Of a stretch of 64,000 bases of DNA, positions 1 to 48,648 are shown in pieces. The DNA is from an uncultured Bacteroidota bacterium. GTDB lineage: Bacteria; Bacteroidota; Ignavibacteria; UBA10030; UBA6906. Every line of letters starts with the position of its first letter. Positions within the stretch are counted from its first letter, which is position 1. A model generated the notes under the pieces. It was not told the origin of the DNA, ran no database searches, and worked only from the letters and a program-made list of their open reading frames with translations. Position numbers and translations under genes: made by a program. The stretch covers positions 112,569-176,568 of the forward strand of contig CAVQPT010000014.1 in NCBI GenBank assembly GCA_963714855.1. The letters are read 5' to 3'.

Positions 1-829
1 TGACTTCCGCAAGAACCTCTCTACTCGCGAACCGTTTGAGCCGGCCGCGGAAAAATACGTCCACATTGTTGAGCATGAGGCCGAAAATCAGGATAAACAC
101 CAGCGCGGCCAGATGGAGCATCTTCCCCGCCGCATAGAGAAGCACCAGCAGGGAGATCAGGAAAAACAGCTTCGCACCTTTGCCCATCGATTGCAGGATG
201 ACGATGAGCAGAAAACTGATAGCAAACCCCAGGAGCGTTGACGCGCCAATATTTACCATCACCTCAAGGGAAAGTGAGACGGCAGACCCGCCGTCAGCCA
301 TGCCGAGGGTGATGTTGAACAGAAGAATTCCGAGGATATCTGAAATCGTGCTCTCGTACACGAGAAATTCGCGCCTTGTCTCGTCCAGGCTTCTGATGCT
401 GGGGATAACGATGGCACTGCTCAGGACGGAAAGAGGTATGGCGAAGAGAAACGCCCGGAACGGGTCCAGCGCAATCGTCGCATGCAGAAGGTACGCGATA
501 GCAAACGTTGACGCGAGCAAGCCCACCAGGGCTACGACAAAAGCCCTGATAATTGTCGATCGTTTTTCCCTGGAGAGTTTGAGATCGAGCGCCGCCTCCA
601 GGACGATCATGATGAGTCCCACGAGCCCCACAATCTCCAGCACCTGAAAGATCTGACCGGCGGTGTCGACATGGATCGCTTCGAGCAACTGCTCGATGCC
701 GACCCCGAGGGCGATCAGGAGCAGAACGCTGGGAATGTTCGTCTTGCGGCTAAGCCCACCGAAGAGGTGGGAAAAAATGAGCACGGCGCACGCCGCCATG
801 ACGAGGACATGAGAATTGAAGTAGTCCAT
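1..829 (-). CDS. cation:proton antiporter (Na+/H+ exchanger family), N-terminal part; 3' end runs off the window
   Basis: Absent from the ORF track because no stop lies inside the window. My reverse-complement translation from ATG (complement of 827-829) reads MDYFNSHVLVMAACAVLIFSHLFGGLSRKTNIPSVLLLIALGVGIEQLL...YESTISDILGILLFN... with no stop down to position 1. It is multi-TM with a typical CPA-type N-terminus. The + ORF 180..647 is its antisense shadow. Confidence 0.8.
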   Translation of the reverse strand, partial: MDYFNSHVLVMAACAVLIFSHLFGGLSRKTNIPSVLLLIALGVGIEQLLEAIHVDTAGQIFQVLEIVGLVGLIMIVLEAALDLKLSREKRSTIIRAFVVALVGLLASTFAIAYLLHATIALDPFRAFLFAIPLSVLSSAIVIPSIRSLDETRREFLVYESTISDILGILLFNITLGMADGGSAVSLSLEVMVNIGASTLLGFAISFLLIVILQSMGKGAKLFFLISLLVLLYAAGKMLHLAALVFILIFGLMLNNVDVFFRGRLKRFASREVLAEV

Positions 830-892
830 CTTTCTTTGTACCTTTACTGTAGTACCACGGTCTCCCCTCAAGGTAGGAAAGATTCGCCGCAC

Positions 893-3800
893 ATGCCAGG
901 TTCTCCAAAATTCGGAACCTTTAGCGGGGTGTTCACGCCTTCCATTCTGACGATCCTCGGCGTGATCATGTTTCTGCGGCTCCCGATGATCATCGGAGAG
1001 GCCGGACTGCTCGCGGCCATCGGCATTATTGTCGTCGCCCACACGATCTCCCTGACGACGGGTCTGAGCGTCTCCTCCATTGCGACGGACAAGAAGGTGC
1101 AGGCGGGGGGAACCTACTACATGATCTCCCGCAGCCTGGGCTTACCCATTGGAGGAACACTTGGCATTGCTCTCTTCATCGGACTTTCGTTCAGCGTCAG
1201 TCTGTACCTCATCGGGTTTGCAGAGAGCTTCGTCGCATACTGGGGGTTAGAACCCACGCGGGACACAATCCGCCTGACCGGCACGATTGTCCTGGTGGTT
1301 GTTTCGACGGTCACACTGATAAGCACATCGCTGGCGATCAAGACTCAGTACTTCATCATGGCTGCGATCGTCCTCTCGCTTCTTTCGGTTCTGCTGGGCC
1401 GGCACGGATTCACACCTTCAGAACCTCTCCTGCTAAACCCCGGGAGCACGATTCCGCTCATGGTCCTTTTCGGAATTTACTTTCCGGCTGTCACGGGATT
1501 CGAAGCAGGGGTTTCGATGTCAGGCGACCTGCGCGATCCCAAGAAGTCCATACCGACCGGCACCATAGCGGCCATCGCCATGGGGTTCGTCGTCTACATT
1601 GGTCTTGCCACCTTCCTGGCGTTTACCGTTGACGGCGCGAAGCTGGCGACGGACCCTGAAGTGCTCCTGGATATCTCCCTTTTTCCCCAACTTGTAGTCG
1701 CGGGAATCTGGGGGGCGACGCTCTCCTCCGCATTCGGGAGCATCCTGGGCGCCCCCCGTATCCTCCAGGCGGCGGCTTCGGACCGGATCGCCCCCTCCCT
1801 GTTCTCTCGCGGATCCGGTCCCGCCAGGGAACCACGGAACGCCCTGTTGCTTACAGTCCTGATCGCCGAGGGGGGCATTCTCATCGGCGAGCTCAATATT
1901 ATCGCCAGAATCGTCTCGATTTTTTTCATAACGACGTATGGATTTCTCAATCTGAGCTGTGCTTTCGAGGTCTGGACCAGTGCTGACTTCCGGCCGGAAT
2001 TCCGGTCCCCCGTGTGGGTCAGCCTCCTCGGCGCCATTGCGTGTGTCGTTGTCATGATCCAACTTGACTTCGCGGCAATGGTGGGGGGCATTCTCCTCCT
2101 GGGCGGGCTGTTTGCCCTGCTCAAGCGGAAAGAACTCCGGCTCGAGACAGGCGACGCCTGGAGCAGTGTGTGGGCTTCGCTGGTCAAGTCCGGCATTGAA
2201 CGACTCACCCGGGAGACCACCCACCAACGAAACTGGCGCCCGAATATCATCATGTTCCGCGGAGAAGCGGACGATCGTTCCCATCTCCAGAATCTTGGCG
2301 CCGCCATCACCGGACGCCTCGGCGTCCTGAGCAATTTTGAGCTTTCACACGGAGAAGCTGACGGGGCGCGGCGTCTCGAACCTCTGGAACCGGTTGATAA
2401 CGCTCCGGTGCACACCCTGCGCCACTACTGCACGGACGTGTACGCCGGCATGAAGGAGATCATCCGATTGTATGGATTCTCCGGCGTGCACCCGAACACC
2501 GTCCTCATGGGGTGGAGCAAACAGGTCAAGTCCCGGCCAAAATTTCTGGATGTGGTCCGCACCGTCATGAAGAGTGATATGAACGTTGTATTGCTCCGTC
2601 ATCATCCAACCAGGCAGTTTGGGGATGCCACGACGCTGGACGTATGGTGGGACGGCCGTGGATCAGACCTCTCGTTTGCCATTACGTTGTTGCGTTACCT
2701 GTCCACCTCCGTCATGTGGCAAACTGCGCGGATGCGATTGCTGGTCGTTAATGATGATGCCAGCCGGACGGAGAAGGTGTACCGCACGCTCCACCGGACT
2801 CTGCGCGATTACCGCATGGAGATAGAGGTCCGCATTATCGAACGTGAACAGCATCAGCTTTCGATTGAGGAAATCATCCAGCGTGAAAGTGGCGGGGCAG
2901 ACCTGACGATCATAGGTCTCGCCGGCACAACACCCGATCGCCTGGAAGTTGCGGTCGAGCGTTTGGAAGGACTGTTCGAGGTCCTGGGCTCCGTCATCAT
3001 TGTCCACGGCTCTTCACAGTTCGAGGACCTCGATATCGGAATCGCAGACGAGAATGAAGAGACGATAGCGCCCCTTGGTGATTCCGAAATCCAGCTTCCT
3101 CCTGTCCCTTCATCCCGATCCCCCCTCCTCAGTGAAGATCTGCAGAAACTGGAAGCCAACGGCGACCGCGTGCTCCGGCTGCTCTTCGAGCGGGGAATAG
3201 CCACGTGGTTCACCGAGGAACGGAGGCTGATTGCGGCCCTCAGCGATATCGGACTGACGTTTCATGATGCGCTCGATCGCGCAAGCCGTTTTCCGGATCC
3301 ATTCCGGCGTCGCAAGGCGATCGTGAGAATCCAGAACGAGTACTTGTTCCGGTGCCGATCGCTCGTCACATCGATCAATGACGACATTCTTCCGACGCAA
3401 CGGGATTCGCTTGCCGCTGCGCTCGACGAATATGCTGAACGTCTCGCGCGGGATGCTGCACGCATCCCAGCATCGTTCCGCATGATATATTCCCGGGAGG
3501 ATTTGCAGCCCACACCGGATGATACCGCAATGATCAGAGTTCGGAAGGCTGGACACAGGATGGTTCACGGCGTGCTGGGGTATCCGGCAACCCGCTCGGT
3601 TCCCTATCGCAAGACCGCCGAACATCATCTGCTGCACACACGGCATGTTTTCCTCAAGGCCTTTCTCCAGCAATTCTTGGATGCGACGATGAAGTCGCTC
3701 TCTGCCATCAAATCCGAAATGCTGGGCCTTGCTGCCAGTTTTCACGAGCTTGAGGTCAACCTTACCTCTCGTGGATGGCGGGAGGAAGATGTGGACCAGA

Positions 3801-5959
3801 TCATGGCCGCCTTCCGCACGGGCATGGAGTCTCTTGACACTGCTGCCGTCGCGCGGCACCGATTGTACAACCATCGGTTGCACTTGGAATTCCGGAATGC
3901 GCTCGTGGCTCTGCGGGACGAGATGGAACGGTTCGGGGGCACTCCCCACTCCAGACGTCAGCGGGTCTCCCCGAAGGTCTATAAAGAGCTGATTCGCGTC
4001 AACAGAACATTTGCGGACACGTGGATGCAGGATGTCCGCCTGGTCGCGGAAAAGGTCACCCTCGATATCGCTCTCGCTTCTCTCCAGGGTCGCGTCAACG
4101 ACCGTGCCGAGGAACTGCTCACGGAGATCCACCGGAGAATCGACGCACATGTTCTCTCACCTCTCGCACGAGTGCGGGAGAAGTTCCACCAGGCACTGAA
4201 GCAGGGAACGGACGTCTCAGCCGAGTTCGAGGTTGAACCGTCATTTGGCTTCCTCGAGAGTCTCGACGAAGCACGTGAAGATATCCATGATCTGACACGC
4301 ACACTGCCCGAGTCGATGCTGGTCTGTGACGAGGAGGGAAGTGCGGACGGAGGACTAGAAGCTGTCGAAGTCCCGGCCGTCAGGCTCGCACAGCACCACC
4401 TTGAATCGCTGTTCGTCAGTCCGGTTCAGCAATACCTCACCGAAGCGGGGGAACAGCTCCGGAAGAGCGCATATGCGATAAAGGACCAGGTAAACCTCAC
4501 CAAATTCGAGGTGGACAATATTGATCGTGATACCGCAGACCGTGCGTCTGCGCTCTCGGCGATCGTAACAAGCGCTCTGTCTTTTCTTGAACGCGAGCAG
4601 AAACACCTGGGTGAACTCAAGAAGCAGGTCTCGTCGGTAACGCGAACGGCGGTGGAACAATCCTACTCTCCCCTGGCTCCACACATGATCGTGAAGAGTG
4701 CGGTTGATCTCCAGGATGTTCTTCGTGGATACAAAGGCCGGTGGATGCGTTCGTCTTTTGATCGGTATGCGAAGCTCGGGCGGGACTTCCTGGAGAACAA
4801 CCTGGTCCGGCTCATCTACAGTAGGAGCGTGGGAGTGCTCATGGCGGGCAAAACCGGCCTGTCGTCAACCGCGCCGATAGCGGAAGTGCAGAAGCTCGTG
4901 GCATCCGTGACGCCAAAACCCGAAGTCATCAAGAGTCTGCCCCAATTCTACGCAAACCTGTTCAGCGGCAAGTCCACCATCGGCGAGGAATTCTGGGTCC
5001 CCCGGAAAACGGAGGAGGACGCGTTTGCCCGGGCGGTGCGCCGGTTTCGGGCAGGTGGCCAGGGGGCGGTCCTCCTGCTTGGAAGCAGGAACGCGGGGAA
5101 GACGTCATTCTGCAGGCGGGTCGATGCGACGAACTTCACGAAGGGCAGCCAATTCCATGTCTTCCCGCCGCGGGAGGGATCCGTTGACCGGACGGTGTTC
5201 GCCGCAACGCTTGCCCACGTCACCCGTTTCTCCGGGGACGCGTCTGAGATTCTGCGCTCTCTTCCGCACGGGAGCGCCGTGTTCCTTCATGATATCGAAC
5301 TCTGGTTCGAACGCAGTTCCACCGGGCTCGACGTGCTTTCCGAGATTCACTCCCTGATCGAATCGTTCTCAAGGGACTTAATGATTGTGTTGAATACAAG
5401 TCCGGCCGCGTTTTCGGTGATACGACACCTCGAACCGCTCCACGAAGTGTGCACCGAAGTGATCCACATTGCCCCCATGTCGGCCGAAGACCTCAAGACC
5501 ATGATCATGCTCCGTCATGCGTCGAGTGGAATGCAGTACCGCCTCGGCCGGCGATCAGAGGAGGAATTGTCCGGATATCTTACGGCACGACTCTTCGATG
5601 CGTGCTTCCGGGCCTCCGACGGCAACCCCGGCACCGCTCTCAATGCATGGCTCTCGTGCATCATTCGCGTGAACGAACGGGTGCTGGAGATACGGAAGGC
5701 GGACGTGGTGTCGCCAGAGCTGCTCGGCACCCTCGACCCTGACTGGCTCGTGATCCTTGCGCAGGTCGTGATTCACAAGCGGCTGACGATCGCCAAGGCC
5801 GAGCGGATTACCGCCATGAACAGTGAAGCGGTACAGAGAACAATTCGCAGGATGACCACCGTCGGGCTGCTCCACGAGCGATCACCGGGCGTCTATACAA
5901 TAAATCCGTACATCGACAGGCTGGTGCACAAGCTCCTCGAGGAAAGACAGATACTATGA
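893..5959 (+). CDS. SLC12-like cation-chloride cotransporter (amino acid permease fold) fused to a ~970-aa C-terminal extension with a P-loop NTPase and a winged-helix-like tail
   Basis: ORF 671..5959. The first plausible start is ATG 893 (MPGSPKFGTFSGVFTPSILTILGVIMFLRLP, a conserved SLC12/AA_permease N-terminus). The polytopic TM region runs to ~2130. An SLC12-type cytoplasmic domain follows (NWRPNIIMFRG, HPNTVLMGW, DVWWDG.GSDLSFAITLLRYL) to ~3030. After a long helical region come Walker A GSRNAGKT (5081-5104) and a Walker-B-like VFLHDIE (5279-5299). Confidence 0.8.
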   Translation: MPGSPKFGTFSGVFTPSILTILGVIMFLRLPMIIGEAGLLAAIGIIVVAHTISLTTGLSVSSIATDKKVQAGGTYYMISRSLGLPIGGTLGIALFIGLSFSVSLYLIGFAESFVAYWGLEPTRDTIRLTGTIVLVVVSTVTLISTSLAIKTQYFIMAAIVLSLLSVLLGRHGFTPSEPLLLNPGSTIPLMVLFGIYFPAVTGFEAGVSMSGDLRDPKKSIPTGTIAAIAMGFVVYIGLATFLAFTVDGAKLATDPEVLLDISLFPQLVVAGIWGATLSSAFGSILGAPRILQAAASDRIAPSLFSRGSGPAREPRNALLLTVLIAEGGILIGELNIIARIVSIFFITTYGFLNLSCAFEVWTSADFRPEFRSPVWVSLLGAIACVVVMIQLDFAAMVGGILLLGGLFALLKRKELRLETGDAWSSVWASLVKSGIERLTRETTHQRNWRPNIIMFRGEADDRSHLQNLGAAITGRLGVLSNFELSHGEADGARRLEPLEPVDNAPVHTLRHYCTDVYAGMKEIIRLYGFSGVHPNTVLMGWSKQVKSRPKFLDVVRTVMKSDMNVVLLRHHPTRQFGDATTLDVWWDGRGSDLSFAITLLRYLSTSVMWQTARMRLLVVNDDASRTEKVYRTLHRTLRDYRMEIEVRIIEREQHQLSIEEIIQRESGGADLTIIGLAGTTPDRLEVAVERLEGLFEVLGSVIIVHGSSQFEDLDIGIADENEETIAPLGDSEIQLPPVPSSRSPLLSEDLQKLEANGDRVLRLLFERGIATWFTEERRLIAALSDIGLTFHDALDRASRFPDPFRRRKAIVRIQNEYLFRCRSLVTSINDDILPTQRDSLAAALDEYAERLARDAARIPASFRMIYSREDLQPTPDDTAMIRVRKAGHRMVHGVLGYPATRSVPYRKTAEHHLLHTRHVFLKAFLQQFLDATMKSLSAIKSEMLGLAASFHELEVNLTSRGWREEDVDQIMAAFRTGMESLDTAAVARHRLYNHRLHLEFRNALVALRDEMERFGGTPHSRRQRVSPKVYKELIRVNRTFADTWMQDVRLVAEKVTLDIALASLQGRVNDRAEELLTEIHRRIDAHVLSPLARVREKFHQALKQGTDVSAEFEVEPSFGFLESLDEAREDIHDLTRTLPESMLVCDEEGSADGGLEAVEVPAVRLAQHHLESLFVSPVQQYLTEAGEQLRKSAYAIKDQVNLTKFEVDNIDRDTADRASALSAIVTSALSFLEREQKHLGELKKQVSSVTRTAVEQSYSPLAPHMIVKSAVDLQDVLRGYKGRWMRSSFDRYAKLGRDFLENNLVRLIYSRSVGVLMAGKTGLSSTAPIAEVQKLVASVTPKPEVIKSLPQFYANLFSGKSTIGEEFWVPRKTEEDAFARAVRRFRAGGQGAVLLLGSRNAGKTSFCRRVDATNFTKGSQFHVFPPREGSVDRTVFAATLAHVTRFSGDASEILRSLPHGSAVFLHDIELWFERSSTGLDVLSEIHSLIESFSRDLMIVLNTSPAAFSVIRHLEPLHEVCTEVIHIAPMSAEDLKTMIMLRHASSGMQYRLGRRSEEELSGYLTARLFDACFRASDGNPGTALNAWLSCIIRVNERVLEIRKADVVSPELLGTLDPDWLVILAQVVIHKRLTIAKAERITAMNSEAVQRTIRRMTTVGLLHERSPGVYTINPYIDRLVHKLLEERQIL

Positions 5960-15880: not shown

Positions 15881-18351
15881 ATGACTAGAGGTCACAAACC
15901 CTTGCCGAAGCGAGACACTGGATTCTCTCAATTTGCTGTGTGCCTGTTCCTCACGATGTCCGTTGGTACGTCGAAGGCGGAGACAACGTTCAGCCCATCA
16001 ATCCAGCATGAGGTTGACGGAACGAGTGTCGTCATTACCGGGACGCATGGAAAGCGCCTGCGCCTCACATCCTACGGGCATCACATGGTCCGTGTGCAGG
16101 CCGTCCGGCCCGGCGAAGAGTTTTTCCCAGACGACCGGTATGAGATGATCGTCGCACATCCGTCGGACTGACTCCCTTCTTCTGTCCAAGGAACAGGGAT
16201 TTCTCCGAATCGCACCTCGCGCTGACAGCGGCATTGTTGTGAAAGTGGACGAGGCTTCGTTGAAACTTTCCTTCTTCCGGAATGGGACGGAAAGGCCGTT
16301 CCTCGAGGAGGACGAAGGCACTCGATGGAGACATGACACCATCGTCACGTCGTTTGTCTGTCATCAGGATGAGCATTTCACAGGATTGGGGCATGGATAC
16401 TATGGCAGGGCGGAGAGCCTGGATTTGCGCAGAGAAGTGATCCATCGCAACTACGGGTCACAGCATGGCGAGCAAGCACCCCTTCTTGTGCCTTTCTATC
16501 TTTCTGACAGGGGATATGGCGTATTTCTGAATAGCACGTTTCCGAACACATTCGTTTTCGGCAAACGATGGCCGCTATGAGATCTCTCTTCTCGGGGACG
16601 GACGGATGGACTACGTCGTGATCCTCGGCCCGGGATTCCCGGAAATCATCGACCGGTACACGCAGCTCACCGGGAGACCCCGGTTCCCTCCCCGCGCGGT
16701 ATTTGGTCTTGCCCTCTCAGACAAAGGGAACGACCATACCTCTTCCGATCCCTCCGACGAAGCATGGTGGAAACGGAAAGTGACCGAGCACAGAAATGTG
16801 GGATTTCCAATTGATCACATTGTCAACGACAATCGGTGGAGAGCGGGAGGCGGGAAACGGTGTGAATCGTACTTTGCATGGGACACGACGCGGTATCCCG
16901 ATCCACGGGAATACCAACTGTGGATCCGGGAGCATGGACTTGTCGTAACCCTTGATTTCAACCGCTGCATTGCGGCGAAGAGTGACGGTTGGAAGCCGTC
17001 GTTCAACATCCCGCTTTCCGACAGCATTGAATTCCGGGACAGCGCTCCAGATTTCACACGAAAGGAGGTGCGTGCATGGTTCTGGAACCTCTTCTGGCGC
17101 ACGTCGCTGGACCCCGCACTCGGTTATCCGGGTGATGCGCTCTGGATCGATGAATTCGACGAAATGGGGAAAGCTCCATCATCCATGCTCCTCGGTAATG
17201 GCAGAACGTGGAACGAAATGAAGAACTCCTGGTTTTTTCTCATCGCCAAAGCCCTCGTCCAGGAAGGGTGGGACGAACGGTTTCACGGAACGAAACGGCC
17301 GTTCGTGTGGGTACGAGGCATGAGCGCGGGAGCCCAGCGCTGGGCCACACTCTGGAGCGGGGACATCAAGCCGACCTATGCCGACATGGAAACGCAGGTT
17401 CGCGGCATGCAACTCGCCGGCCTATCCGGCTTCCCCTTCTGGGGTCATGACGCTGGTGGCTTTCACGACTGGGAGAGCGGCACAGGGCCGGATGACACGA
17501 TGTATCGCCAGTGGTCGATGGCCTTCGGCGCCTTCTCCCCTTTCTGGAAGCCACACGGTATGGGGCAATCACGGTGGCCCCTCGACCGCTCCAGCGAGGC
17601 GCAGAAAGACGCACACCGGTATTGCCAGTTGCGGTCTGCACTCATGCCTTACCTCTATACGTATGCGCATAAAGCCTCGCAAACGGGGATGCCGATCGCC
17701 CGTGCCATGATGATCGAATACCAGAATGATTCTCTCGCCTGGAAGAGTGATCTGCAGTATCTGTGGGGGCATGAGTTCCTTGTGGCCCCCAATTGTTCGG
17801 ATGGAGAGAACGTCACTCTCTGGCTCCCCGAGGGCGACTGGTATGATTTCTGGAGCGATACGCAGATCACCGGGGGGCAAATCTACACACTCCCCTCCCC
17901 CACAGGAATGCTGCCGCTCTTTGTGCGTTCTGGTGCTATTGTACCGATGGCGCCCGCGAAATTGAGCACGACCTTCATCCCCGAAGACAGTCTGATTCTT
18001 CATGTATACACAGGCCACGATGCAACCTTCGTACTGTATGAGGATGACGGCATCTCTGAACTGTACAGGACAGCGGGTGCTTTTCGGACGACCACGATCA
18101 CATTCACACAGTCCACTCTGTCGCTGCACATCACCTCTTCCACCGGCACGTATGCCTCTGCACCGGACCAGCGCGCGTACCAGGTAGTCTTCCATGGACT
18201 TCCCGGATCGGCCTGCTTCGAGGTGGACGGTATGCGTGTGCGATGGGAAAGGACTGTCGGGGAGTCAACCCCGAGCACTGCCGTTGTGACAATCCCACGG
18301 AGAGCAATACATGCCCCGCTTCACGTGCGGGCGATTTCGCCGTGTCTTTGA
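15881..18351 (+). pseudogene. GH31 alpha-glucosidase/alpha-xylosidase-like gene, reading frame interrupted twice (pseudogene or assembly indels)
   Basis: Three consecutive ORFs lie in three different frames: 15851/15881..16171 (signal + N-domain), 16149..16580 (FLRIAPRADSGIVVKVDEASLKLSFFRNG...HFTGLGHG) and ~16570..18351 (RYEISLLGDGRMDYVVILGP, WIDEFDE, WSGDI, GFPFWGHDAGGF). The frame switches fall near 16150-16170 and 16560-16585. Confidence 0.8.
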
Positions 18352-18472
18352 CCGCACGAGGCCGCCTGTTTCGTGCATGGAGGTCTCTGAAAGCCGATGT
18401 CAGCCGGGCGCATTCTTGTTCGCCGCCGGGCAGGAGCCCGGCGACTCACTCTTCACTGTTGTGGAATAGACA

Positions 18473-20926
18473 ATGACCCTTCGCGTATTCGCATGCCTTG
18501 TGATGCTAGCGCCGACACTGACGGCGCAGGTCACTCCCGGAGACTATGTATCCTACACCCGATACGGGAGCGCCGTGCGGATTCACACAATCTCGTGTGA
18601 GGTACGGCTGACTTTCTACTCGGAGGAAATTCTCAGGGTTGATTTTCTCCCATCGCCGTTGGCTCTCCTCGATTCATCGTTTGTCGTCATCCGTGAACCG
18701 TCAGGCACTCTCCCCATAATTGTGCAGGAGTGCGACTCTTTGCTCCACATCGCATCGTCTCTCCTTCGCGTGCAATGCCGGAAGTATCCCCTCCGGCTGA
18801 CATTTGCTGATTCGTCGGGACGTGTGCTCCTCGCGGAATCTGACGCAGGTGGCATGGCGGCCGACGCCGAGCAACGGCGCATGCAGTTTGTGCTGAACGA
18901 CAACGATCACTTCTATGGAACAGGAGAACGAGGCACGAGTCTCGACAAACGGGGACAGTCCTTCGACTCTTACAACACTCAGGTCGGCGGGTATTCAACC
19001 CCTCTCCGAACAATGAATCTGAATGTCCCCTTTCTCGCATCCACCAACGGCTACGCTCTCTACATCGACAACCCCTACCGGGGCAGATTCGACTTGGGCG
19101 CGTCCGACACGACGGTGTTTTCCTACACCGTATCCGGCGGAGAGCTTTCCTGGTACTTCATCGGGGCTCCGACAATTCAGGGGCAGCTCGAGCAGTACAC
19201 CTGGCTCACCGGGAGACAGCCCCTTCCTCCGCGCTGGGCGTTCGGGTTTCTCCAATCGAAGAACCGCTATCAGGACGAGCGCGAGGCACGTTCCATCGTC
19301 AGGACAATGCGCGAAAGACATTTCCCCTGTGACGCCCTTATCCTCGACCTGGCGTGGTTCAGGCACATGGGCGATCTCACCTGGGATACCACGCGATGGC
19401 CTCACAGCGACGCAATGGTTTCCGATTTCCTCGCACAGGGGTTTAAGACCATTCTGATCACAGAACCGTATGTCGTACACCCCTCGGTCAATTTCGCCGA
19501 GGCCGATTCCCTCGGATACTTCGCGCAGGATGCCACCGGTCACACGTTTGTGCTGGACAAGTGGTGGTCGTGCGGCGGATGTGAAGCGGCTCTCCTCGAC
19601 CTGACGGATCCGACGGTGCAACGCTGGTGGTGGGGTAAGCACGTGGAAGCGTTCGGGTCTCAGGTCGCAGGAATCTGGACAGATCTTGGAGAGCCGGAGC
19701 GACACCCCGATGCGATGATGCATGCTCTCGGACCCGCTCCCACCATTCATAATGTCTACAACCTCCTCTGGGCCAGAACCGTCTTTGAAGGTCTGAGCAA
19801 CCTACACCCTGAGAGGCGCGTTGTGAACCTCACGCGATCAGGCTTCGCCGGCATCCAGCGGTATGGCGTACTGCCGTGGTCGGGGGACGTGGCGCGCAGC
19901 TTCGGGGGGCTGGCTGTGCAGATCCCGATGATGCTCGGCATGGGCATGTCGGGTCTTGCGTACCACAATTCCGATATCGGCGGGTATGCCAGGATGCCGA
20001 CAACCCCCGAACTCTATGTCCGGTGGATGCAATACGGCGTATTCTGTCCGATCACCCGGACGCACGGAGCTGGCGAAGCGGTGCGGGGCTCACCAACTGA
20101 GCCGTGGCAGTTCGGCTCCGGGGCGGAAACTATATGCCGGGAGTTCCTTCGTCTCCGGTATCGGTTGCTGCCATACATCTACACCTATGCCCGACAGAAC
20201 TACGAGTCTGGACTGCCGTTGGCCCGGCCGCTGTTCTTCCTGGATCCCTCAGATCCCCGGCTGTACAACGACAACTCGTCCTATATGTGGGGGGACGCAT
20301 TTCTTGTCTCGCCGATCGTCGAGCAGGGACAAACATCGAAAGAACTCTACCTTCCACGGGGGAACTGGTTCAATTTCTGGACGGATGAACTGGTCCAGGG
20401 TGGAGCGTTCAGCCTCGTGGATGCTCCGCTTGACCAAATGCCTCTCTTCGTACGATCAGGGAGCATTATTCCGATGGGACCCGTCATGGAGTATTCCGAC
20501 GAGCGGGAGCTCGATACGCTCACCCTCGCAGTGTATCCTGCCAACGCCGGTACGGCGTCGTTCACGCTGTACGAGGATGACGGCAAGACGCTTGCCTACC
20601 AGCGAGACGGGTTTTCGTTGACCACATTCACTCAAGAGTATGTCCCGTATGCCAAGGGTCCGAACCTCCGGCTGCGCGCCGGGCCGGCGGTGGGGTTATT
20701 TGCGGGGAAACTCACGCGACGTGTCTATGTGTTTGATGTACACGGGATTGCTCAGCGTCCGGCCCAGATCCTCTGCAATGGAGTGATGCTGACCGGTCCA
20801 GGACCACAATGGGGGGCGTCTGCAGGACGAGAAGGATTCCGGTACGATGAAGATACGCACAAGCTTCACATTCAGACTCTCTGCAGCACGGACAGCACGT
20901 ACGACATCGAGGTCAGGTTTCCATAG
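18473..20926 (+). CDS. GH31 glycoside hydrolase (alpha-glucosidase/alpha-xylosidase-like), exported
   Basis: Signal peptide MTLRVFACLVMLAPTLTAQ. Motifs: FYGTGERG, GIWTDLGEPE, PWSGDV, YHNSDIGGY, RTHGAGE. Intact at 817 aa. Confidence 0.9.
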   Translation: MTLRVFACLVMLAPTLTAQVTPGDYVSYTRYGSAVRIHTISCEVRLTFYSEEILRVDFLPSPLALLDSSFVVIREPSGTLPIIVQECDSLLHIASSLLRVQCRKYPLRLTFADSSGRVLLAESDAGGMAADAEQRRMQFVLNDNDHFYGTGERGTSLDKRGQSFDSYNTQVGGYSTPLRTMNLNVPFLASTNGYALYIDNPYRGRFDLGASDTTVFSYTVSGGELSWYFIGAPTIQGQLEQYTWLTGRQPLPPRWAFGFLQSKNRYQDEREARSIVRTMRERHFPCDALILDLAWFRHMGDLTWDTTRWPHSDAMVSDFLAQGFKTILITEPYVVHPSVNFAEADSLGYFAQDATGHTFVLDKWWSCGGCEAALLDLTDPTVQRWWWGKHVEAFGSQVAGIWTDLGEPERHPDAMMHALGPAPTIHNVYNLLWARTVFEGLSNLHPERRVVNLTRSGFAGIQRYGVLPWSGDVARSFGGLAVQIPMMLGMGMSGLAYHNSDIGGYARMPTTPELYVRWMQYGVFCPITRTHGAGEAVRGSPTEPWQFGSGAETICREFLRLRYRLLPYIYTYARQNYESGLPLARPLFFLDPSDPRLYNDNSSYMWGDAFLVSPIVEQGQTSKELYLPRGNWFNFWTDELVQGGAFSLVDAPLDQMPLFVRSGSIIPMGPVMEYSDERELDTLTLAVYPANAGTASFTLYEDDGKTLAYQRDGFSLTTFTQEYVPYAKGPNLRLRAGPAVGLFAGKLTRRVYVFDVHGIAQRPAQILCNGVMLTGPGPQWGASAGREGFRYDEDTHKLHIQTLCSTDSTYDIEVRFP

Positions 20927-27055: not shown

Positions 27056-29461
27056 ATGGAGATGGAGAGTGAATCACCTTACCCGGAACCTTCCGTGATC
27101 GGCCAGACCGTCTCACATTACCGGATTCTCGAACGCCTGGGCGCCGGCGGAATGGGCGTCGTGTACACGGCCGAGGATACCCGCCTCAAGCGCACCGTTG
27201 CCCTCAAGTTCCTTCCCCCAGAACTGACAAGCGACCCCGGGGCGAAAGAACGCTTCACCCATGAAGCCCAGGCCGCCTCGGCCCTCCAGCACACCAACAT
27301 CTGCGTTGTCCATGACATCGACGAAACGCCTGATGGCCACTTATTCATCGTCATGGAATACATGGAGGGCGAGACGCTCAGGGCGAAGATCGATCGCGGT
27401 CCCCTCGCAATCGACGAAGCACTTGATATCACAATACAGATCGCCAGGGCGCTCTCCAAGGCACATGCAGGCGGGATTATTCATCGGGACATCAAGCCGG
27501 CAAACATCTTTTTGACCGACGACGGCACGGCGAAGCTTCTGGATTTCGGTCTTGCAAAACTCACCGGCCGTACGATGCTGACGAAGGCCGGAAGCACGAT
27601 GGGAACGCTGGCGTACATGTCGCCGGAACAACTCCGCGGCACCGCAGTCGATCATCGTACAGACATCTGGGCCCTGGGCGCGGTCTTGTACGAGATGCTC
27701 TCGGGGCAGCAACCCTTCAAGGGTGAGTATGACCCTGCGATCCTCTATGCGATTCTCGACATAGAGCCCGAGCCGATTGCCAGTCGCCGGCCGGAGGTCC
27801 CTGGGGCACTCGGGGACGTGCTCTCGAGATCGCTTTCAAAAGACACAGCACAACGCTATCAGGACATCGAGACGCTCCTCGGAGAACTGGCGGCGATTCG
27901 GGGCGGGGGTGTACACCCGGCGTTTCACCGGACGCCGAATGGAGTCCTGCACCGCCCCCGGTGGCCCCTCCTTGCCGGAGGCACAGCAATGGTTTGCGGC
28001 ATACTCATTACAATTCTGACGGTCACCCGGAGCACAAACACGGTTTCATCGATCCATTCGCTCGCGGTACTTCCCTTTCGGCACACTGCCACGACACTCG
28101 CAGACACGGTATTCGCCGAAGGCATGACGGACGCGCTGTCCACCGAGCTCTCGAAACTCCGCGCGCTCGTGGTGCGCTCGTCCCGTTCAGCCATGCGCTA
28201 CAAAGACTCGGACAAATCGCTTTCGGCAATTGCGCAGGAGCTGAACGTCGATGCACTCATCGACGGATCGACGCAGGTTTCCGGGAACAGCGTGCGGGTA
28301 TCCGTGAACCTGATCAACGCCAATCCGGAACAACAGATCTGGGGAGAGAATTACACGAAGAATCTCGAGGACATCAATGCTCTTCAGAGCACCGTAGCGC
28401 AGGCGATCGCCCGCGAGATCAAGATCGTTCTCACGCCCGAGGAACAAAGCCGTCTGGCGCGCCAGCAACCGGTCAACCCGGAGGCATACCAGGCATGTGT
28501 GTACGGCCGGTGGTACTGGAACAAGTGGACTCCCGAAGGATTCCAGACAGCCCTCAAATATTTTCGCGAAGCCGCTCAGAAGGATCCTTCCTACGCACCT
28601 GCGTATGCCGGCATTGCCGACGTGTATGCCACACTCTGGTACAACGGGACTGTCCCTTTTGATTCCGTCGAACCACACTGGAGGCCTGCCGCAAACAAAG
28701 CGATGGAGCTCGACGCCCGGATGGCCGAGGGGCATGTCTCCGTGGCCGCCACACGGCTCGTCTACGACTGGGATTGGTCGGGAGCCGGAGAGCAACTCCG
28801 GCACGCGCTGTTCCTGAATCCCAGCTACGCTACCGGGCATCAATGGTACGCCCTCTTTCTCTCCGCACTTGGCCGTCACGATTCTGCGCTGAGTGAAATA
28901 CGTCTCGCACAGGATCTGGATCCTCTCTCGGTCGTTATCGCCGCAACAGCCGGCTGGGTGTGCATCTACGCCCGTCACTATGATCAGGCAATCGCACAGT
29001 TTCAAAAAGCTCTCACCCTCGACTCGCTCTGTGCCCCCGCCCATTCGGGTCTTGGTGAGATTTACGAGATGCAGGGAAGAAATGAGGAGGCCCTCCAGGA
29101 GTACCTCCGCGTCGCACGCATTAGCGGTGGGAGTTTTGCCACACTGGGAGGGGGGGTTGCAGACCCCGTTCCCCGGCTCCGGGCTGCCTACAGGTCCGGC
29201 GGATGGCGGGGGTACTGGTGGGAACAGCTTGCAATGCTCGAAGACCGCGCGCGCACTTCGTACGTCTCCTCGTTTCATATCGCCGCGGTCTGTGCCCGCC
29301 TGCAAAGGAAGGACGACGCGTTCCGGTGGCTTCAGCGGTCCTACCAGGAGCGCTCGACAAACCTTCTCTTTGGAACGGTGGACCCGAACATGGATAATCT
29401 CAACGATGATCCCCGCTACCGCGCGCTCATGCAACGGATCGGACTGACCGTTGGGCGCTGA
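27056..29461 (+). CDS. Ser/Thr protein kinase with TM segment, periplasmic TolB-N-like region and TPR repeats
   Basis: Hanks kinase motifs: [41 protein letters not shown] segment [24 protein letters not shown]-like repeats in the C-terminal half. Confidence 0.9.
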
Positions 29462-45699: not shown

Positions 45700-48648
45700 A
45701 TGCCAAGGACACCTCTACTCCTGATCATCATTCTCGCGCTGGGACTGGCGGCTCCGGCTTCCCCCGGCGCTGATTTCTTCACCCTGCGCACAGGGAATAT
45801 GCGGCTTGTCTACTACTCGCCGACGCACTCCTACATCGTTCCACACCTCGCGCGCAGTTTTGAAAACTCCCTCGCATTCCACCGCAAGCTTTTTCATTTT
45901 GAGCCATCGCAGGATGTCCTGATTTTTCTGCAGGACTATGACGACTACGGATATGCCGGCGCCACCAGCATCCCCCGCAACTACATGATCCTCGGCATAT
46001 CTCCGTATGAATACACGTACGAGACGTCGCCGACAAACGAACGCTTCAACTGGGTGACCAGTCACGAGCTGACACACATTGTTGCCACCGACAAAGCCGC
46101 GCCGTCAGACCGATTTTTCCGCTCCATCCTGTTCGGCAAGGTCGTACCGGTTGCGGAAGAGCCTGTCTCAATTCTCTACAGCTACCTCACAACACCGCGG
46201 AAATATTCTCCCCGGTGGTACCACGAGGGGATCGCGGTCTTCATGGAGACGTGGATGGCGGGAGGCATCGGCCGCGCAATCAACGGCTATGACGAAATGG
46301 TCTTTCGCACGATGGTGCGCGAAGGGAGTTATTTCTACGATTTCGTCGGCCTCGAGTCGGAAGGAACAACTGTCGATTTTCAGATCGGTGCGAATTCCTA
46401 TCTGTACGGGACGCGGTTTGTGACCTATCTGGGTCGTGAATTCAGCCCTGCCCGGGTCATAGAGTGGTTCGACCGATCGGACACCAGCAACGCTTACTTC
46501 GCGTCAGCGTTTGCGAAGGTTTTCGGCCGGGATATCGATGACGTCTGGTCCGAGTGGATCGCCTTTGAGCATCGCTGGCAGGAGGCAAACCTCGATTCCA
46601 TCAATCAGTACCCGCGTACACAGATGCGGCCGATCGTCCCAGAGGCCCTGGGGGCTGTCTCGCGCGCCCATTTCGACGGCAAGACGCGCAACCTCTACCT
46701 GGGCGTCAATTTTCCGGGGGAGACCGCCCATATCATCTCCCTGAACATCGACAACGGCTCGATACGAAAAATCACGGACATCCCCACTCCTTCGTTGTAC
46801 AATGTGACGGCCACCGCGTTTGACGATTCGAGCGGGACTCTCTATTACACGACAAAAAACTCGAAGGGGTGGAGAGATCTCGTCGCTCTGGACGTTCGGA
46901 CCGGTCAGAACAGGATCCTCCTTGCCAACGCCCGCATCGGTGATCTCACCATGAACAAGGCTGACAAATCGCTCTGGGGAATTCAGCATCACGATGGCAT
47001 ATCACGACTCGTTCGCGTCCCCTACCCCTATCAGGGGTACCAGGAAATTGTCCCGTTCAAGTACGGCATCGATCTCTATGATCCGGACTTCTCGCCCGAT
47101 GGAGAGACGCTTGTTGCCTCCATGACCGAGATCAGCGGGCGACATTCTCTGATCGCCATCCCGCTCAACGAGCTTCTCAGCGCGGACATGAAACACGAAG
47201 TCCTGTACGAATTTGAGAACACCGCCCCGTTGAACTTCGTCTATTCTCCGGACGGAAAGTACCTGTTCGGCTCGACGTTCTACACGGGCGTATCCAACAT
47301 CGTCCGCTACGATATCGCCAGCAAGACCATGGAATGGCTGACGAATGTCGAAACAGGTCTCTTCCGCCCTGTGCCTGTGTCCGCCGACTCCGTTCTGGCA
47401 TTCCGGTATACAGCGAAGGGATTCCTGCCGGTGATGATCGCCAACACAACGCGCGACGACGTCCATGCGATATCCTACCTGGGGCAATCGGTGGTCGATC
47501 TGCATCCTGAAGTCAAGGAATGGAAACTTCCACCCCCGACCTCGCGGGTCATCAATCTCGATTCATTGACGGTCGCCACCGGCGAATACAACGGCCTGGA
47601 GAGTATTCAGCTGGGGTCGATTTACCCTGTGGCCCAGGGGTACAAGAACACCGTTGCCTGGGGAGCGCGGGCGAACCTCTTTGATCCGCTGCTGATGCAC
47701 AGCCTGGAGATGACCGCATCCTACTCTCCGAATCAGGGCCTCACACGGGATGAACGGTTCCATACCTCCGTGCGTTACAGGTACTGGCAGTGGAGTCTCA
47801 AGGCGGGCTATAATTCTGCTGATTTCTACGACCTCTTTGGACCGACAAAACGAAGTCGCAAAGGGTATGCCTTCACCCTGGGCTACAGTGATGGGATACT
47901 TGATGACCGGCCTGTCACGCTCGATTACTCACTCAGCGCCAGCGCCTACTGGGGACTGGAGCGATTGCCGTACTCTCAGAACATCGCCGTCACCTACGAC
48001 AGGTTTTTTGTTCTCAGCGGGAGCCTCGATTACCAACGGCGCCTTCGTTCGCTTGGCGCGGTGGACTATGAAAAAGGGGTCCAGATGTCTGTCGGAAACT
48101 ACACGTATGTCGTTCGATCGGTCTGGTTTCCCCAGTTTTACGCCACCGCAGACGTCGGGTTCGCGCTTCCCTGGAATCACTCCTCCCTCTGGATCAGAAC
48201 CGGCGGCGGCTACTCGCCCAAGGATGAAGATGAGCCCTTCTCGAATTTTTATTTCGGCGGGTTCGGGAACAACTACGTCGACTTTCGCGAGGTGAGCCGG
48301 TACCGTGATTTTGACAGCTTCCCGGGGACGAAACTAAATGCGATCGGCGGGACCACATTCGCGAAGGCCATGGCCGAATGGACACTCCCGCCGCTGCGGT
48401 TCAGGAGGTTCGGAGTTGCGGCCCTGTATTGCAACTGGACCCGCCTCTCCCTGTTTGGCGGATCCATCGCCGCAAATGTGCACAATCCGGCCCTGTTCAG
48501 GGTTGTCTCGAACGTCGGAGCGCAGGTGGATTTCAAGCTGGTAGTCTTCTCGAATCTTTCCGCGACGCTCTCCGCCGGGTATGCACTTGCCTTCGAGAAA
48601 GGCCGACTCCCCACAAAGGAGTTCATGATGTCGATCAAGATCCTTTGA
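45700..48648 (+). CDS. exported 982-aa protein: gluzincin-like HExxH domain + PD40/TolB-like beta-propeller region + C-terminal Omp85-like beta-barrel region
   Basis: Signal peptide MPRTPLLLIIILALGLAAPASPGA. SHELTHIV followed by WYHEGIAVFME. PD40-like repeats (DFSPDGETLV, VYSPDGKYLF). The C-terminal ~300 aa are Tyr/Gly/Phe-rich alternating strands ending in MSIKIL. Domain calls are pattern-based. Confidence 0.7.
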   Translation: MPRTPLLLIIILALGLAAPASPGADFFTLRTGNMRLVYYSPTHSYIVPHLARSFENSLAFHRKLFHFEPSQDVLIFLQDYDDYGYAGATSIPRNYMILGISPYEYTYETSPTNERFNWVTSHELTHIVATDKAAPSDRFFRSILFGKVVPVAEEPVSILYSYLTTPRKYSPRWYHEGIAVFMETWMAGGIGRAINGYDEMVFRTMVREGSYFYDFVGLESEGTTVDFQIGANSYLYGTRFVTYLGREFSPARVIEWFDRSDTSNAYFASAFAKVFGRDIDDVWSEWIAFEHRWQEANLDSINQYPRTQMRPIVPEALGAVSRAHFDGKTRNLYLGVNFPGETAHIISLNIDNGSIRKITDIPTPSLYNVTATAFDDSSGTLYYTTKNSKGWRDLVALDVRTGQNRILLANARIGDLTMNKADKSLWGIQHHDGISRLVRVPYPYQGYQEIVPFKYGIDLYDPDFSPDGETLVASMTEISGRHSLIAIPLNELLSADMKHEVLYEFENTAPLNFVYSPDGKYLFGSTFYTGVSNIVRYDIASKTMEWLTNVETGLFRPVPVSADSVLAFRYTAKGFLPVMIANTTRDDVHAISYLGQSVVDLHPEVKEWKLPPPTSRVINLDSLTVATGEYNGLESIQLGSIYPVAQGYKNTVAWGARANLFDPLLMHSLEMTASYSPNQGLTRDERFHTSVRYRYWQWSLKAGYNSADFYDLFGPTKRSRKGYAFTLGYSDGILDDRPVTLDYSLSASAYWGLERLPYSQNIAVTYDRFFVLSGSLDYQRRLRSLGAVDYEKGVQMSVGNYTYVVRSVWFPQFYATADVGFALPWNHSSLWIRTGGGYSPKDEDEPFSNFYFGGFGNNYVDFREVSRYRDFDSFPGTKLNAIGGTTFAKAMAEWTLPPLRFRRFGVAALYCNWTRLSLFGGSIAANVHNPALFRVVSNVGAQVDFKLVVFSNLSATLSAGYALAFEKGRLPTKEFMMSIKIL

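Follow-up and report, generated by a model that had tools for sequence, protein, structure and literature searches.

Positions 893-5959 of a 64,000-nucleotide stretch of DNA from an uncultured Bacteroidota bacterium (contig CAVQPT010000014.1, positions 112,569 to 176,568; this whole stretch is referred to below as the window) encode a single 1688-residue inner-membrane protein, in which a cation-chloride cotransporter (CCC) of the SLC12 family is joined on one polypeptide chain to a C-terminal module composed of an AAA+ ATPase and a winged helix. A long helical region connects the two parts, a gene for an MscS-like membrane protein follows the fusion gene directly, and a gene for an NhaP-type Na+/H+ exchanger departs from the other side of a short intergenic region. 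On the basis of these sequence features, we propose that the locus is an osmotic and ion-homeostasis (salt and volume) module in which the transporter would be controlled by a built-in nucleotide switch, a reading to which we assign a probability of about one half.

A cotransporter and an ATPase module in one reading frame

The fusion gene is one frame from its start codon to its stop (Table 1), in agreement with the original prediction, made from the sequence alone, that the transporter is followed by some 970 further codons without interruption. The positions which that prediction gave for the Walker A motif GSRNAGKT, the Walker B-like strand VFLHDIE and the tail sequence RTIRRMTTVGLLHERSPGVYTINPYI (residues 1649-1674) are all exact. 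The stop-free frame of the forward strand is longer than the gene, spanning 671-5959 in the window, and its first 74 codons (671-892), upstream of the real start, read the antisense of the 5' end of the NhaP gene. Because the N-termini of homologues start at a Met matching position 893 (MPGSPKFGTF...) and because 671-892 overlaps the divergent gene, whose start codon is at 829 (minus strand), the gene begins at the ATG of position 893 and not at 671. Any annotation of the protein should leave out the segment 671-892.

Residues 1-713 are a complete SLC12-family cation-chloride cotransporter (TC 2.A.30), with a LeuT-fold transmembrane (TM) permease and a cytoplasmic C-terminal domain as in the eukaryotic SLC12 proteins NKCC1, KCC1-4 and NCC. 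The protein matches Pfam AA_permease with an E-value of 9.5e-47 and the NCBIfam model TIGR00930 (K-Cl cotransporter subfamily) with 2.5e-109, though under the equivalog-style cut-off of the latter. Among solved structures, KCC4, KCC2, KCC1 and KCC3 are matched at E ~1e-77, NKCC1 at 1e-67 and NCC at 1e-57; the TM permease region alone matches KCC4, KCC2 and NKCC1 in the PDB at E 1e-62 to 1e-59, and the alignments to KCC chains extend into the cytoplasmic domain as far as residue 657. PF03522 scores 17.3 bits in the window protein, under its cut-off of 27, and is matched by 19 of 28 family members (best E 9e-9). Abundant shorter prokaryotic homologues of about 726 residues, named 'Na-K-Cl cotransporter' or 'amino acid permease' in databases, differ in that they end where the extension starts, bearing out the expectation that ordinary prokaryotic forms are much shorter. 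One of them, the 726-residue bacterial protein P0199, is 54% identical over residues 6-713, has the same permease, C-terminal domain and ion-site residues, and ends seven residues further on (nucleotides ~3030-3050), which agrees with the earlier estimate that the transporter is complete by ~3030.

Ion-site residues were read from the printed alignment to human KCC4, compared with the ligands of human NKCC1 (PMC9713717). Y105 aligns to the K+-coordinating Tyr (Y383 in NKCC1, a His in NCC), P198 and T201 fall on the K+ ligands P496 and T499 in TM6 of NKCC1, and Y349 aligns to the Cl2-site Tyr (Y686 in NKCC1). The segment A275-T-L-S278-S279 aligns to the Na+-site residues A610, S613 and S614 of NKCC1 and includes its two Na+-binding TM8 serines; KCC4 has Gly-Ala at both serine positions. 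Across 28 diverse family members, the ion-site residues named here for the window protein show no or almost no variation. Na+- and K+-coupled Cl- transport, i.e., an NKCC-like activity, is thus a reasonable but unproven prediction from the ion-site residues.

The architecture is that of a large family. An exhaustive HMMER search of 1.84 billion representatives (50%-identity clusters) with the extension gave 1459 matches at E<=1e-3, 674 at E<=1e-10 and 376 at E<=1e-30. Among the 150 best representatives, 96 are at least 1600 residues long and carry the match at residues ~700-1700 with the CCC N-terminus ahead of it. Nearly all full-length representatives measure about 1700 residues and have the same layout, and most of the shorter ones are contig-end fragments that start within the permease or lack a Met. 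A word-indexed search with residues 700-1688 returned just four relatives, three of which are 1686-1688 residues long and 87%, 48% and 42% identical; the rarity of the architecture suggested by that search is overturned by the exhaustive counts. Surveying the spread of the fusion, as originally proposed, places its members in Bacteroidota, including the cultured Flexithrix dorotheae (WP_020530625.1), Marinigracilibium pacificum (WP_169683280.1) and Reichenbachiella sp. (WP_349528357.1), and in Myxococcota; proteins from metagenome-assembled genomes include members from Chitinophagales, from Myxococcales (TPV93941.1) and from 'Deltaproteobacteria' (TNF25870.1). The family is already present in RefSeq, and its database names are 'amino acid permease', 'APC family permease' or 'hypothetical protein'.

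Two records could suggest that the fusion is an artefact, in which a CCC gene and a gene for an ATP-binding protein are read as one through a lost stop or a frameshift: an NCBI entry of 989 residues, 'ATP-binding protein, partial', is listed separately, and at one locus (L013) the CCC is shown as a 723-residue product followed by short open reading frames (ORFs). However, the 989-residue entry is a contig-end fragment, and the gene at L013 is a long gene riddled with frameshifts, which lies in six reading-frame pieces (L013:6001-11536). Since the adjoining rhamnosidase genes are fragmented too, L013 probably reflects an error-prone assembly and not a pseudogene. P0176 (723 residues, 70% identical), which had the look of a close short form whose extension might be a separate gene, was rejected as such, because tblastn revealed a long gene that frameshifts had split in a low-quality assembly. 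A stop between transporter and extension was sought in related genomes and none was found; the frame is open across the junction, the junction residues GSSQFE are conserved, and 96 independent representatives of at least 1600 residues, from isolates as well as metagenomes, keep one frame. With such conservation, a fusion artefact is untenable.

Selection has acted on the whole length of the protein. Between the window and its 87% identical orthologue (locus L001), the ratio of nonsynonymous to synonymous substitution rates (dN/dS) is 0.058 for the TM domain, 0.094 for the CCC C-terminal domain, 0.135 for the helical region, 0.085 for the AAA+ module and 0.207 for the winged helix, and every domain is under purifying selection. 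The extension is also found by itself: P0022 (964 residues, L009:950-3844) is a stand-alone helical region, AAA+ module and winged helix with its own Met. The 949 bp upstream contain no CCC, a 163-residue minus-strand ORF lying there, and no MscS-like gene is nearby. The extension module may therefore also occur as an independent protein.

The helical region and the AAA+/winged-helix module

An AlphaFold2 model of residues 700-1688, built from a 5-sequence alignment and used solely for secondary structure and a first hint of the fold, shows a succession of long helices of up to 65 residues. Its overall predicted local distance difference test score (pLDDT) is 62 and its predicted template modelling score (pTM) 0.32, with many helices containing 10-residue blocks at a pLDDT of ~75-92. 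Pfam recognizes no family in the helical region of any of the 28 full-length members scanned. Over 96 members, the commonest residue of a column accounts for no more than 0.25-0.35 of the sequences, whereas gaps make up at most 4%; the length of the region is conserved far better than its sequence. Such near-invariant length combined with poor sequence conservation points to a possible structural or transmission role.

For the C-terminal module (residues 1336-1688), structure prediction from an alignment of 32 diverse members gives a model with a pLDDT of 94.1 and a pTM of 0.90, which confirms, at the level of a model, an AAA+ fold. The modelled alpha/beta core has five strands and is accompanied by a helical lid, a beta-hairpin and a winged helix, the latter made of three helices and then a two-stranded beta-hairpin wing. 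Both structural guesses of the original prediction, that the Walker motifs belong to an NTPase fold and that the tail resembles a winged helix, are borne out by this model. Foldseek returns 781 matches in the PDB at E<=1e-3, with AAA+ proteins on top: Aeropyrum ORC2 (1w5t, E 1e-10), Pyrobaculum Cdc6 (1fnn, 2e-9), Sulfolobus Orc1/Cdc6 (2qby, 3e-9), RuvB (1in5, 5e-9), a Drosophila ORC subunit (chain A of an ORC-Cdc6-DNA complex, 7jgr_A, 5e-9), Apaf-1 (3sfz, 3e-8) and PABY2304 (2qen, 4e-8), after which come TnsC, NSF and p97. Among the 32 members, the Pfam families matched are AAA_16 (28/32, best E 1e-10), ATPase_2 (16/32), AAA_22 (15/32), AAA (14/32) and nSTAND3 (14/32); AAA_22 had been among the candidates first suggested, and the commonest match is instead AAA_16. 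A single-sequence search of the PDB with the ATPase region yielded nothing meaningful, and a 32-sequence profile yielded only marginal matches to the ClpB/ClpC P-loop and to ArsR-type proteins.

Conservation within the module follows the nucleotide site and its surroundings. In the P-loop, G1391, G1397, G1402 and K1403 are invariant or nearly so, K1403 being kept in at least 90% of members; in the DxELWWER segment the same holds for D1467, E1469, W1471, W1472 and R1474, and elsewhere for R1541, H1542, G1577, G1580, W1586 and H1628. Of these, G1397, G1402, D1467, R1541, G1577, G1580 and H1628 are strictly invariant. Just N-terminal of the core, the LPxYYxxLF motif contributes P1350, Y1353 and F1357, which are invariant in 28 members. 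N1501, at the end of the fourth strand, is a plausible sensor 1.

Within the Orc/Cdc6, ATPase_2 and AAA_16 group, the description that fits the module best is that of a divergent and unmodelled branch. With archaeal Orc1/Cdc6 proteins and PABY2304 (1w5t, 1fnn, 2qby, 2qen), its best Foldseek matches, it shares the core, the lid and the C-terminal winged helix, and by our reading of the alignment also an FxGRxxE-like sequence that leads into the P-loop, as well as a lid motif similar to P(F/Y)xxEELxxILxxR. It differs from them in being only 11-16% identical, in having a sensor-2 Gly (GNPG) and a D-x-E Walker B, and in being tied to a membrane transporter through 620 residues of helices, with no link to replication. 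We take GNPG to occupy the position of the sensor-2 GDxR motif of Orc/Cdc6, from which the Arg is absent. The STAND ATPases of the AAA_16 type, such as MalT and Apaf-1, resemble the module in this commonest Pfam match, in a GxP-like lid motif and in a winged helix with an invariant His, and MalT is likewise controlled by a transporter. However, the fusion protein has no repeat or sensor domain after the winged helix and no separate effector domain, its putative sensor-1 residue is a polar Asn and not Arg, and its conserved His, with which the first helix of that winged domain ends, is not at the MHD-type position. As the protein ends at the winged helix and a large helical region precedes the ATPase, the module is not a canonical STAND protein.

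A winged helix at the end of such a chain could also mean that the protein is a membrane-tethered one-component regulator (a 'transceptor'), in which the transporter senses, its transport state reaches the AAA_16-type ATPase by way of the helical region, and the winged helix binds DNA and controls transcription, for example at the divergent promoter of nhaP and of the ccc-mscS pair. MalT, held in check by the maltose transporter, and CadC with LysP are analogues of this arrangement, there on separate polypeptides. The prevalence of AAA_16, the ATPase type of MalT-like regulators, in 28/32 members would fit it, as would the use of the winged helix on DNA by the nearest folds, Orc1/Cdc6 and RuvB, and the existence of a stand-alone copy of the extension. 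The winged helix also gives weak but consistent matches to DNA-binding regulators of the ArsR, MarR, TrmB and HlyU types (PH1932 at E 0.0085, 2d1h at 0.017, HlyU at 0.068 and MarR_2 at 0.005), but all of them, the TrmB and ArsR types included, fall below significance thresholds. The domain is nearly neutral in charge (mean +1.4, range -4 to +9, 121 members), the putative recognition helix opens with an acidic stretch and holds a single well conserved basic residue, and the pTM of 0.90 suggests that the winged helix is docked on the ATPase in a closed-STAND or Orc-like manner and is not free. The 63-bp intergenic region does contain an imperfect inverted repeat, common to the closest orthologue; this repeat is absent from more distant loci and not conserved past that 87% orthologue. 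As a conserved operator between nhaP and ccc, it was discarded, since a repeat shared solely with so close a relative is not informative. We therefore regard a role as a transcription regulator as unlikely.

Genomic context and a proposed salt and volume module

The product of 5956-6708 matches the MscS beta-domain family PF00924 with 26.5 bits against a cut-off of 20.2, and its WFxLRDxVAGVIF motif and the beta-domain GxV...PYS are conserved in nine MscS-like partners. An MscS-like gene (232-260 residues) lies directly downstream of the long CCC in 14/14 distinct loci examined, namely the window, L001, L002, L004, L010, L011, L012, L013, L015 (Myxococcales), L016 (from a subclade with an altered Walker A motif, see below) and four metagenome loci. 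These last stem from a reverse search of metagenome contigs, started from an alignment of four closer MscS-like sequences: the C-terminus of a long CCC stands immediately upstream in 5/5 loci with enough upstream sequence, one of which (L019) is the contig of L002, hence four new loci. Overlap between the stop of the fusion gene and the start of the MscS-like gene is frequent across loci, and the two genes form an operon, probably with translational coupling. The one short-form neighbourhood examined, that of a true short CCC (L014), has neither an MscS-like nor an NhaP neighbour.

So tight a linkage could mean that the extension acts mainly on the channel, the helical region and an AAA+ ring assembling with, scaffolding or gating the MscS-like partner, which would bring the routes of uptake and release together in one complex. 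The co-occurrence in 14/14 loci from both Bacteroidota and Myxococcota, where stop and start codons often overlap, its confirmation in 5/5 loci from the reverse direction and the absence of the gene beside the short-form CCC are all consistent with this idea, as is the fact that the MscS-like proteins have no detectable C-terminal alpha/beta domain, the beta-domain alone being matched. However, the linkage needs no physical contact, being explained by co-expression of an importer with a release valve, and the stand-alone P0022 has no MscS-like neighbour. An action chiefly on the channel is accordingly doubtful.

On the other side, a divergent NhaP-type exchanger is encoded in the window, and one of ~410-450 residues takes the same position in all six of the related Bacteroidota loci that include upstream sequence (L001, L002, L004, L010, L011 and L012). 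In the Myxococcales locus L015, NhaP is not in the divergent position, and in L016 an NhaC-type antiporter lies two genes away. Further osmotic-stress genes adjoining the module in some relatives are those for a CLC channel with CBS domains, a trehalose-phosphate synthase/phosphatase and TreT in L002 (L002:11971-17067) and for TrkH/TrkA in L012 (L012:884-3481); the short CCC of L014 has no such neighbour. A defence-system reading was rejected: beyond weak winged-helix similarities to Csa3 and JetB, PADLOC matched nothing, and the neighbours are ion transporters throughout.

Table 1. Coordinates of the fusion gene, its domains and motifs, and the adjoining features in the window
Feature	Residues	Nucleotides	Strand	Remarks
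Whole fusion gene		893-5959	+	1688 codons and a stop codon; CCC, then helical region, AAA+ module and winged helix
LeuT-fold SLC12-type TM permease	1-440	893-2212	+	Pfam AA_permease, PDB alignments
SLC12 cytoplasmic C-terminal domain	441-713	2213-3031	+	KCC alignment, TIGR00930; end of the short-form CCC unit
Helical region, ~620 residues	714-1335	3032-4897	+	AlphaFold2 helices; no recognisable domain
AAA+ ATPase module	1336-1612	4898-5728	+	alpha/beta core ~1391-1527, helical lid ~1528-1590
LPxYYxxLFxG motif (PQFYANLFSG)	1350-1359	4940-4969	+	best conserved motif within the extension; immediately precedes the ATPase core
Walker A / P-loop GSRNAGKT	1397-1404	5081-5104	+	G1397 and G1402 invariant
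Walker B-like strand VFLHDIE	1463-1469	5279-5299	+	D1467 invariant, E1469 nearly; followed by conserved LWWER
GNPG lid motif, GxP-like	1577-1580	5621-5632	+	G1577 and G1580 invariant
C-terminal winged helix	1613-1688	5729-5956	+	from the model; invariant H1628 (LHKRL)
NhaP-type Na+/H+ exchanger gene, 5' part		2-829	-	Pfam Na_H_Exchanger, E 1.5e-19; truncated by the window start
Divergent intergenic (promoter) region, 63 bp		830-892	.	imperfect inverted repeat TACCTT(T/G)...CAAGGTA
MscS-like membrane protein, 250 residues		5956-6708	+	Pfam MS_channel_2nd; ATG overlaps the stop of the fusion gene (ATGA)

In the proposed module, the locus would serve salt and volume homeostasis. The cotransporter would import K+ and Cl- on the Na+ gradient, NhaP would expel the co-imported Na+ at the expense of the proton gradient, and the MscS-like channel would act as a release valve for solutes on down-shock. 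The AAA+ module may function as a nucleotide-dependent conformational or oligomerisation switch, whose state the helical region would relay to the dimeric transporter, turning it on or off, and possibly to the partner channel too; such a switch would replace the kinase-based control of eukaryotic CCCs. The substrates, the dependence on ATP and the direction of control in this scheme are what we infer. Nucleotide sensing by CCC cytoplasmic domains does have a precedent, since ATP/ADP binds to a USP-like pocket in the C-terminal domain of KCC1, a pocket that resembles TeaD, which regulates the osmoregulated transporter TeaABC (PMC8280820). A bolder and rather speculative form of the scheme, with low odds in our estimation, is a cell-volume regulator in which a rigid 620-residue helical element wires an NKCC-type importer to the AAA+ switch, with reciprocal control of uptake and MscS-like release.

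Several observations weigh against the proposed module. On the transporter side, TM1 carries Thr20 in place of the Asn of eukaryotic CCCs (the ligand there is a backbone carbonyl) and TM6 reads TGFE, as in amino acid permeases, in place of TGI(M/L), so that the substrates are uncertain; our literature searches yielded no transport assay of any prokaryotic CCC. On the ATPase side, the window protein scores 20.5 bits on AAA_16, short of the gathering threshold of 32.6; its Walker B reads D-x-E, with the Glu displaced by one residue from the canonical DE; a Gly stands at the position of the GNPG lid motif that would be expected to hold the sensor-2 Arg; no arginine finger was identified in the module; and several members have Arg for the Walker A Lys. 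Because of these features of the Walker B, the missing sensor-2 and finger Arg and the Lys-to-Arg members, hydrolysis is uncertain and perhaps weak or absent in part of the family. The Lys-to-Arg substitution marks a divergent subclade, including P0106 (1827 residues, L016:5001-10484) and P0153 (1779 residues), which has SGRT instead of SGKT, about 100 extra permease residues after TM3, and TGFT rather than TGFE in TM6. A transporter dimer and a ring-forming AAA+ module, moreover, have no obvious stoichiometric match, and the stand-alone P0022 implies that no covalently attached transporter is needed for the module to work.

The same departures from a canonical active site (the D-x-E Walker B, the sensor-2 Gly, the unidentified Arg finger and the Lys-to-Arg members) would be compatible with a degenerate pseudo-ATPase, in which the extension is a nucleotide-independent scaffold for oligomerisation, localisation or the sensing of ionic strength or crowding by the helices, and so would the conservation of the 620-residue helical region in length and not in sequence. 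However, the P-loop glycines, the Walker A Lys (at least 90%), D1467 and E1469 are kept across members that are only 22-34% identical, and the dN/dS of the AAA+ module is as low as that of the transporter part, the pattern expected of a working nucleotide site. A pseudo-ATPase thus appears improbable.

The rest of the window has the appearance of an ordinary Bacteroidota-type chromosome, with GH31, GH3 and rhamnosidase genes and a gene for a Por-secretion-tail protein; elsewhere it encodes a hybrid histidine kinase with an AraC output, and an Rfam scan of the whole window detected no RNA family. Two tandem GH31 genes lie at 16606-20926 (+), the first of which (581 residues) has no N-terminal mutarotase-like domain such as is present in the second, and a 982-residue ORF at 45700-48648 (+) matches nothing in Pfam at E<=1e-5. 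At 27056-29461 (+), 21 kb from the fusion gene, lies a gene for a Ser/Thr protein kinase with TPR repeats, and a Ser/Thr kinase with TPR repeats is also found at L001:1-1289, ~5 kb upstream of the fusion gene in the 87% orthologous locus. A link of these kinases to CCC regulation is pure speculation.

Relation to known transporters and significance

Eukaryotic CCCs are controlled by WNK-SPAK phosphorylation and not by a fused ATPase. Compared with them, the fusion protein is without the long N-terminal phospho-regulatory tail and carries ~970 additional C-terminal residues with the AAA+ module. Control of an osmoregulatory transporter by a cytoplasmic nucleotide-binding module is known from KtrAB and TrkAH, with their RCK rings, and from the USP protein TeaD of TeaABC. 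The likeness is a functional analogy only: the folds (RCK or USP versus AAA+) are unrelated, and the regulators there are separate subunits, whereas in the fusion protein the module is covalently attached.

Full-text literature searches gave no description of the fusion, in keeping with the initial impression that this architecture is undescribed. The papers retrieved concern eukaryotic CCCs only, and prokaryotic CCCs appear in them solely through the crystal structure solved for the C-terminal domain of Methanosarcina acetivorans MaCCC (Warmuth et al. 2009, as cited in PMC4301019). Both building blocks belong to known families, and the sequences are public, with names that do not reflect the extension; what appears undescribed so far is the combination of a CCC with an AAA+ module, together with its helical region and obligatory MscS-like partner.

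The papers found report neither the substrates nor the control of prokaryotic CCCs. The presence of the family in cultured hosts, with the presumed regulator on the same chain, offers a direct genetic handle on CCC regulation, and hundreds of database entries named 'amino acid permease' could be corrected.

To our knowledge, there is no precedent for an Orc/Cdc6-like or STAND-like ATPase that gates transport, and if the AAA+ module does gate transport, this would be a new role for such ATPases. Should the tentative cell-volume regulator prove true, it would provide the first known case of a secondary transporter gated by an AAA+ module, and the locus would represent a prokaryotic, kinase-free counterpart of the reciprocal control of NKCC and KCC by WNK-SPAK in animals. 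In the bacteria that carry it, a likely use of the system would be salt-in osmoadaptation together with NhaP.

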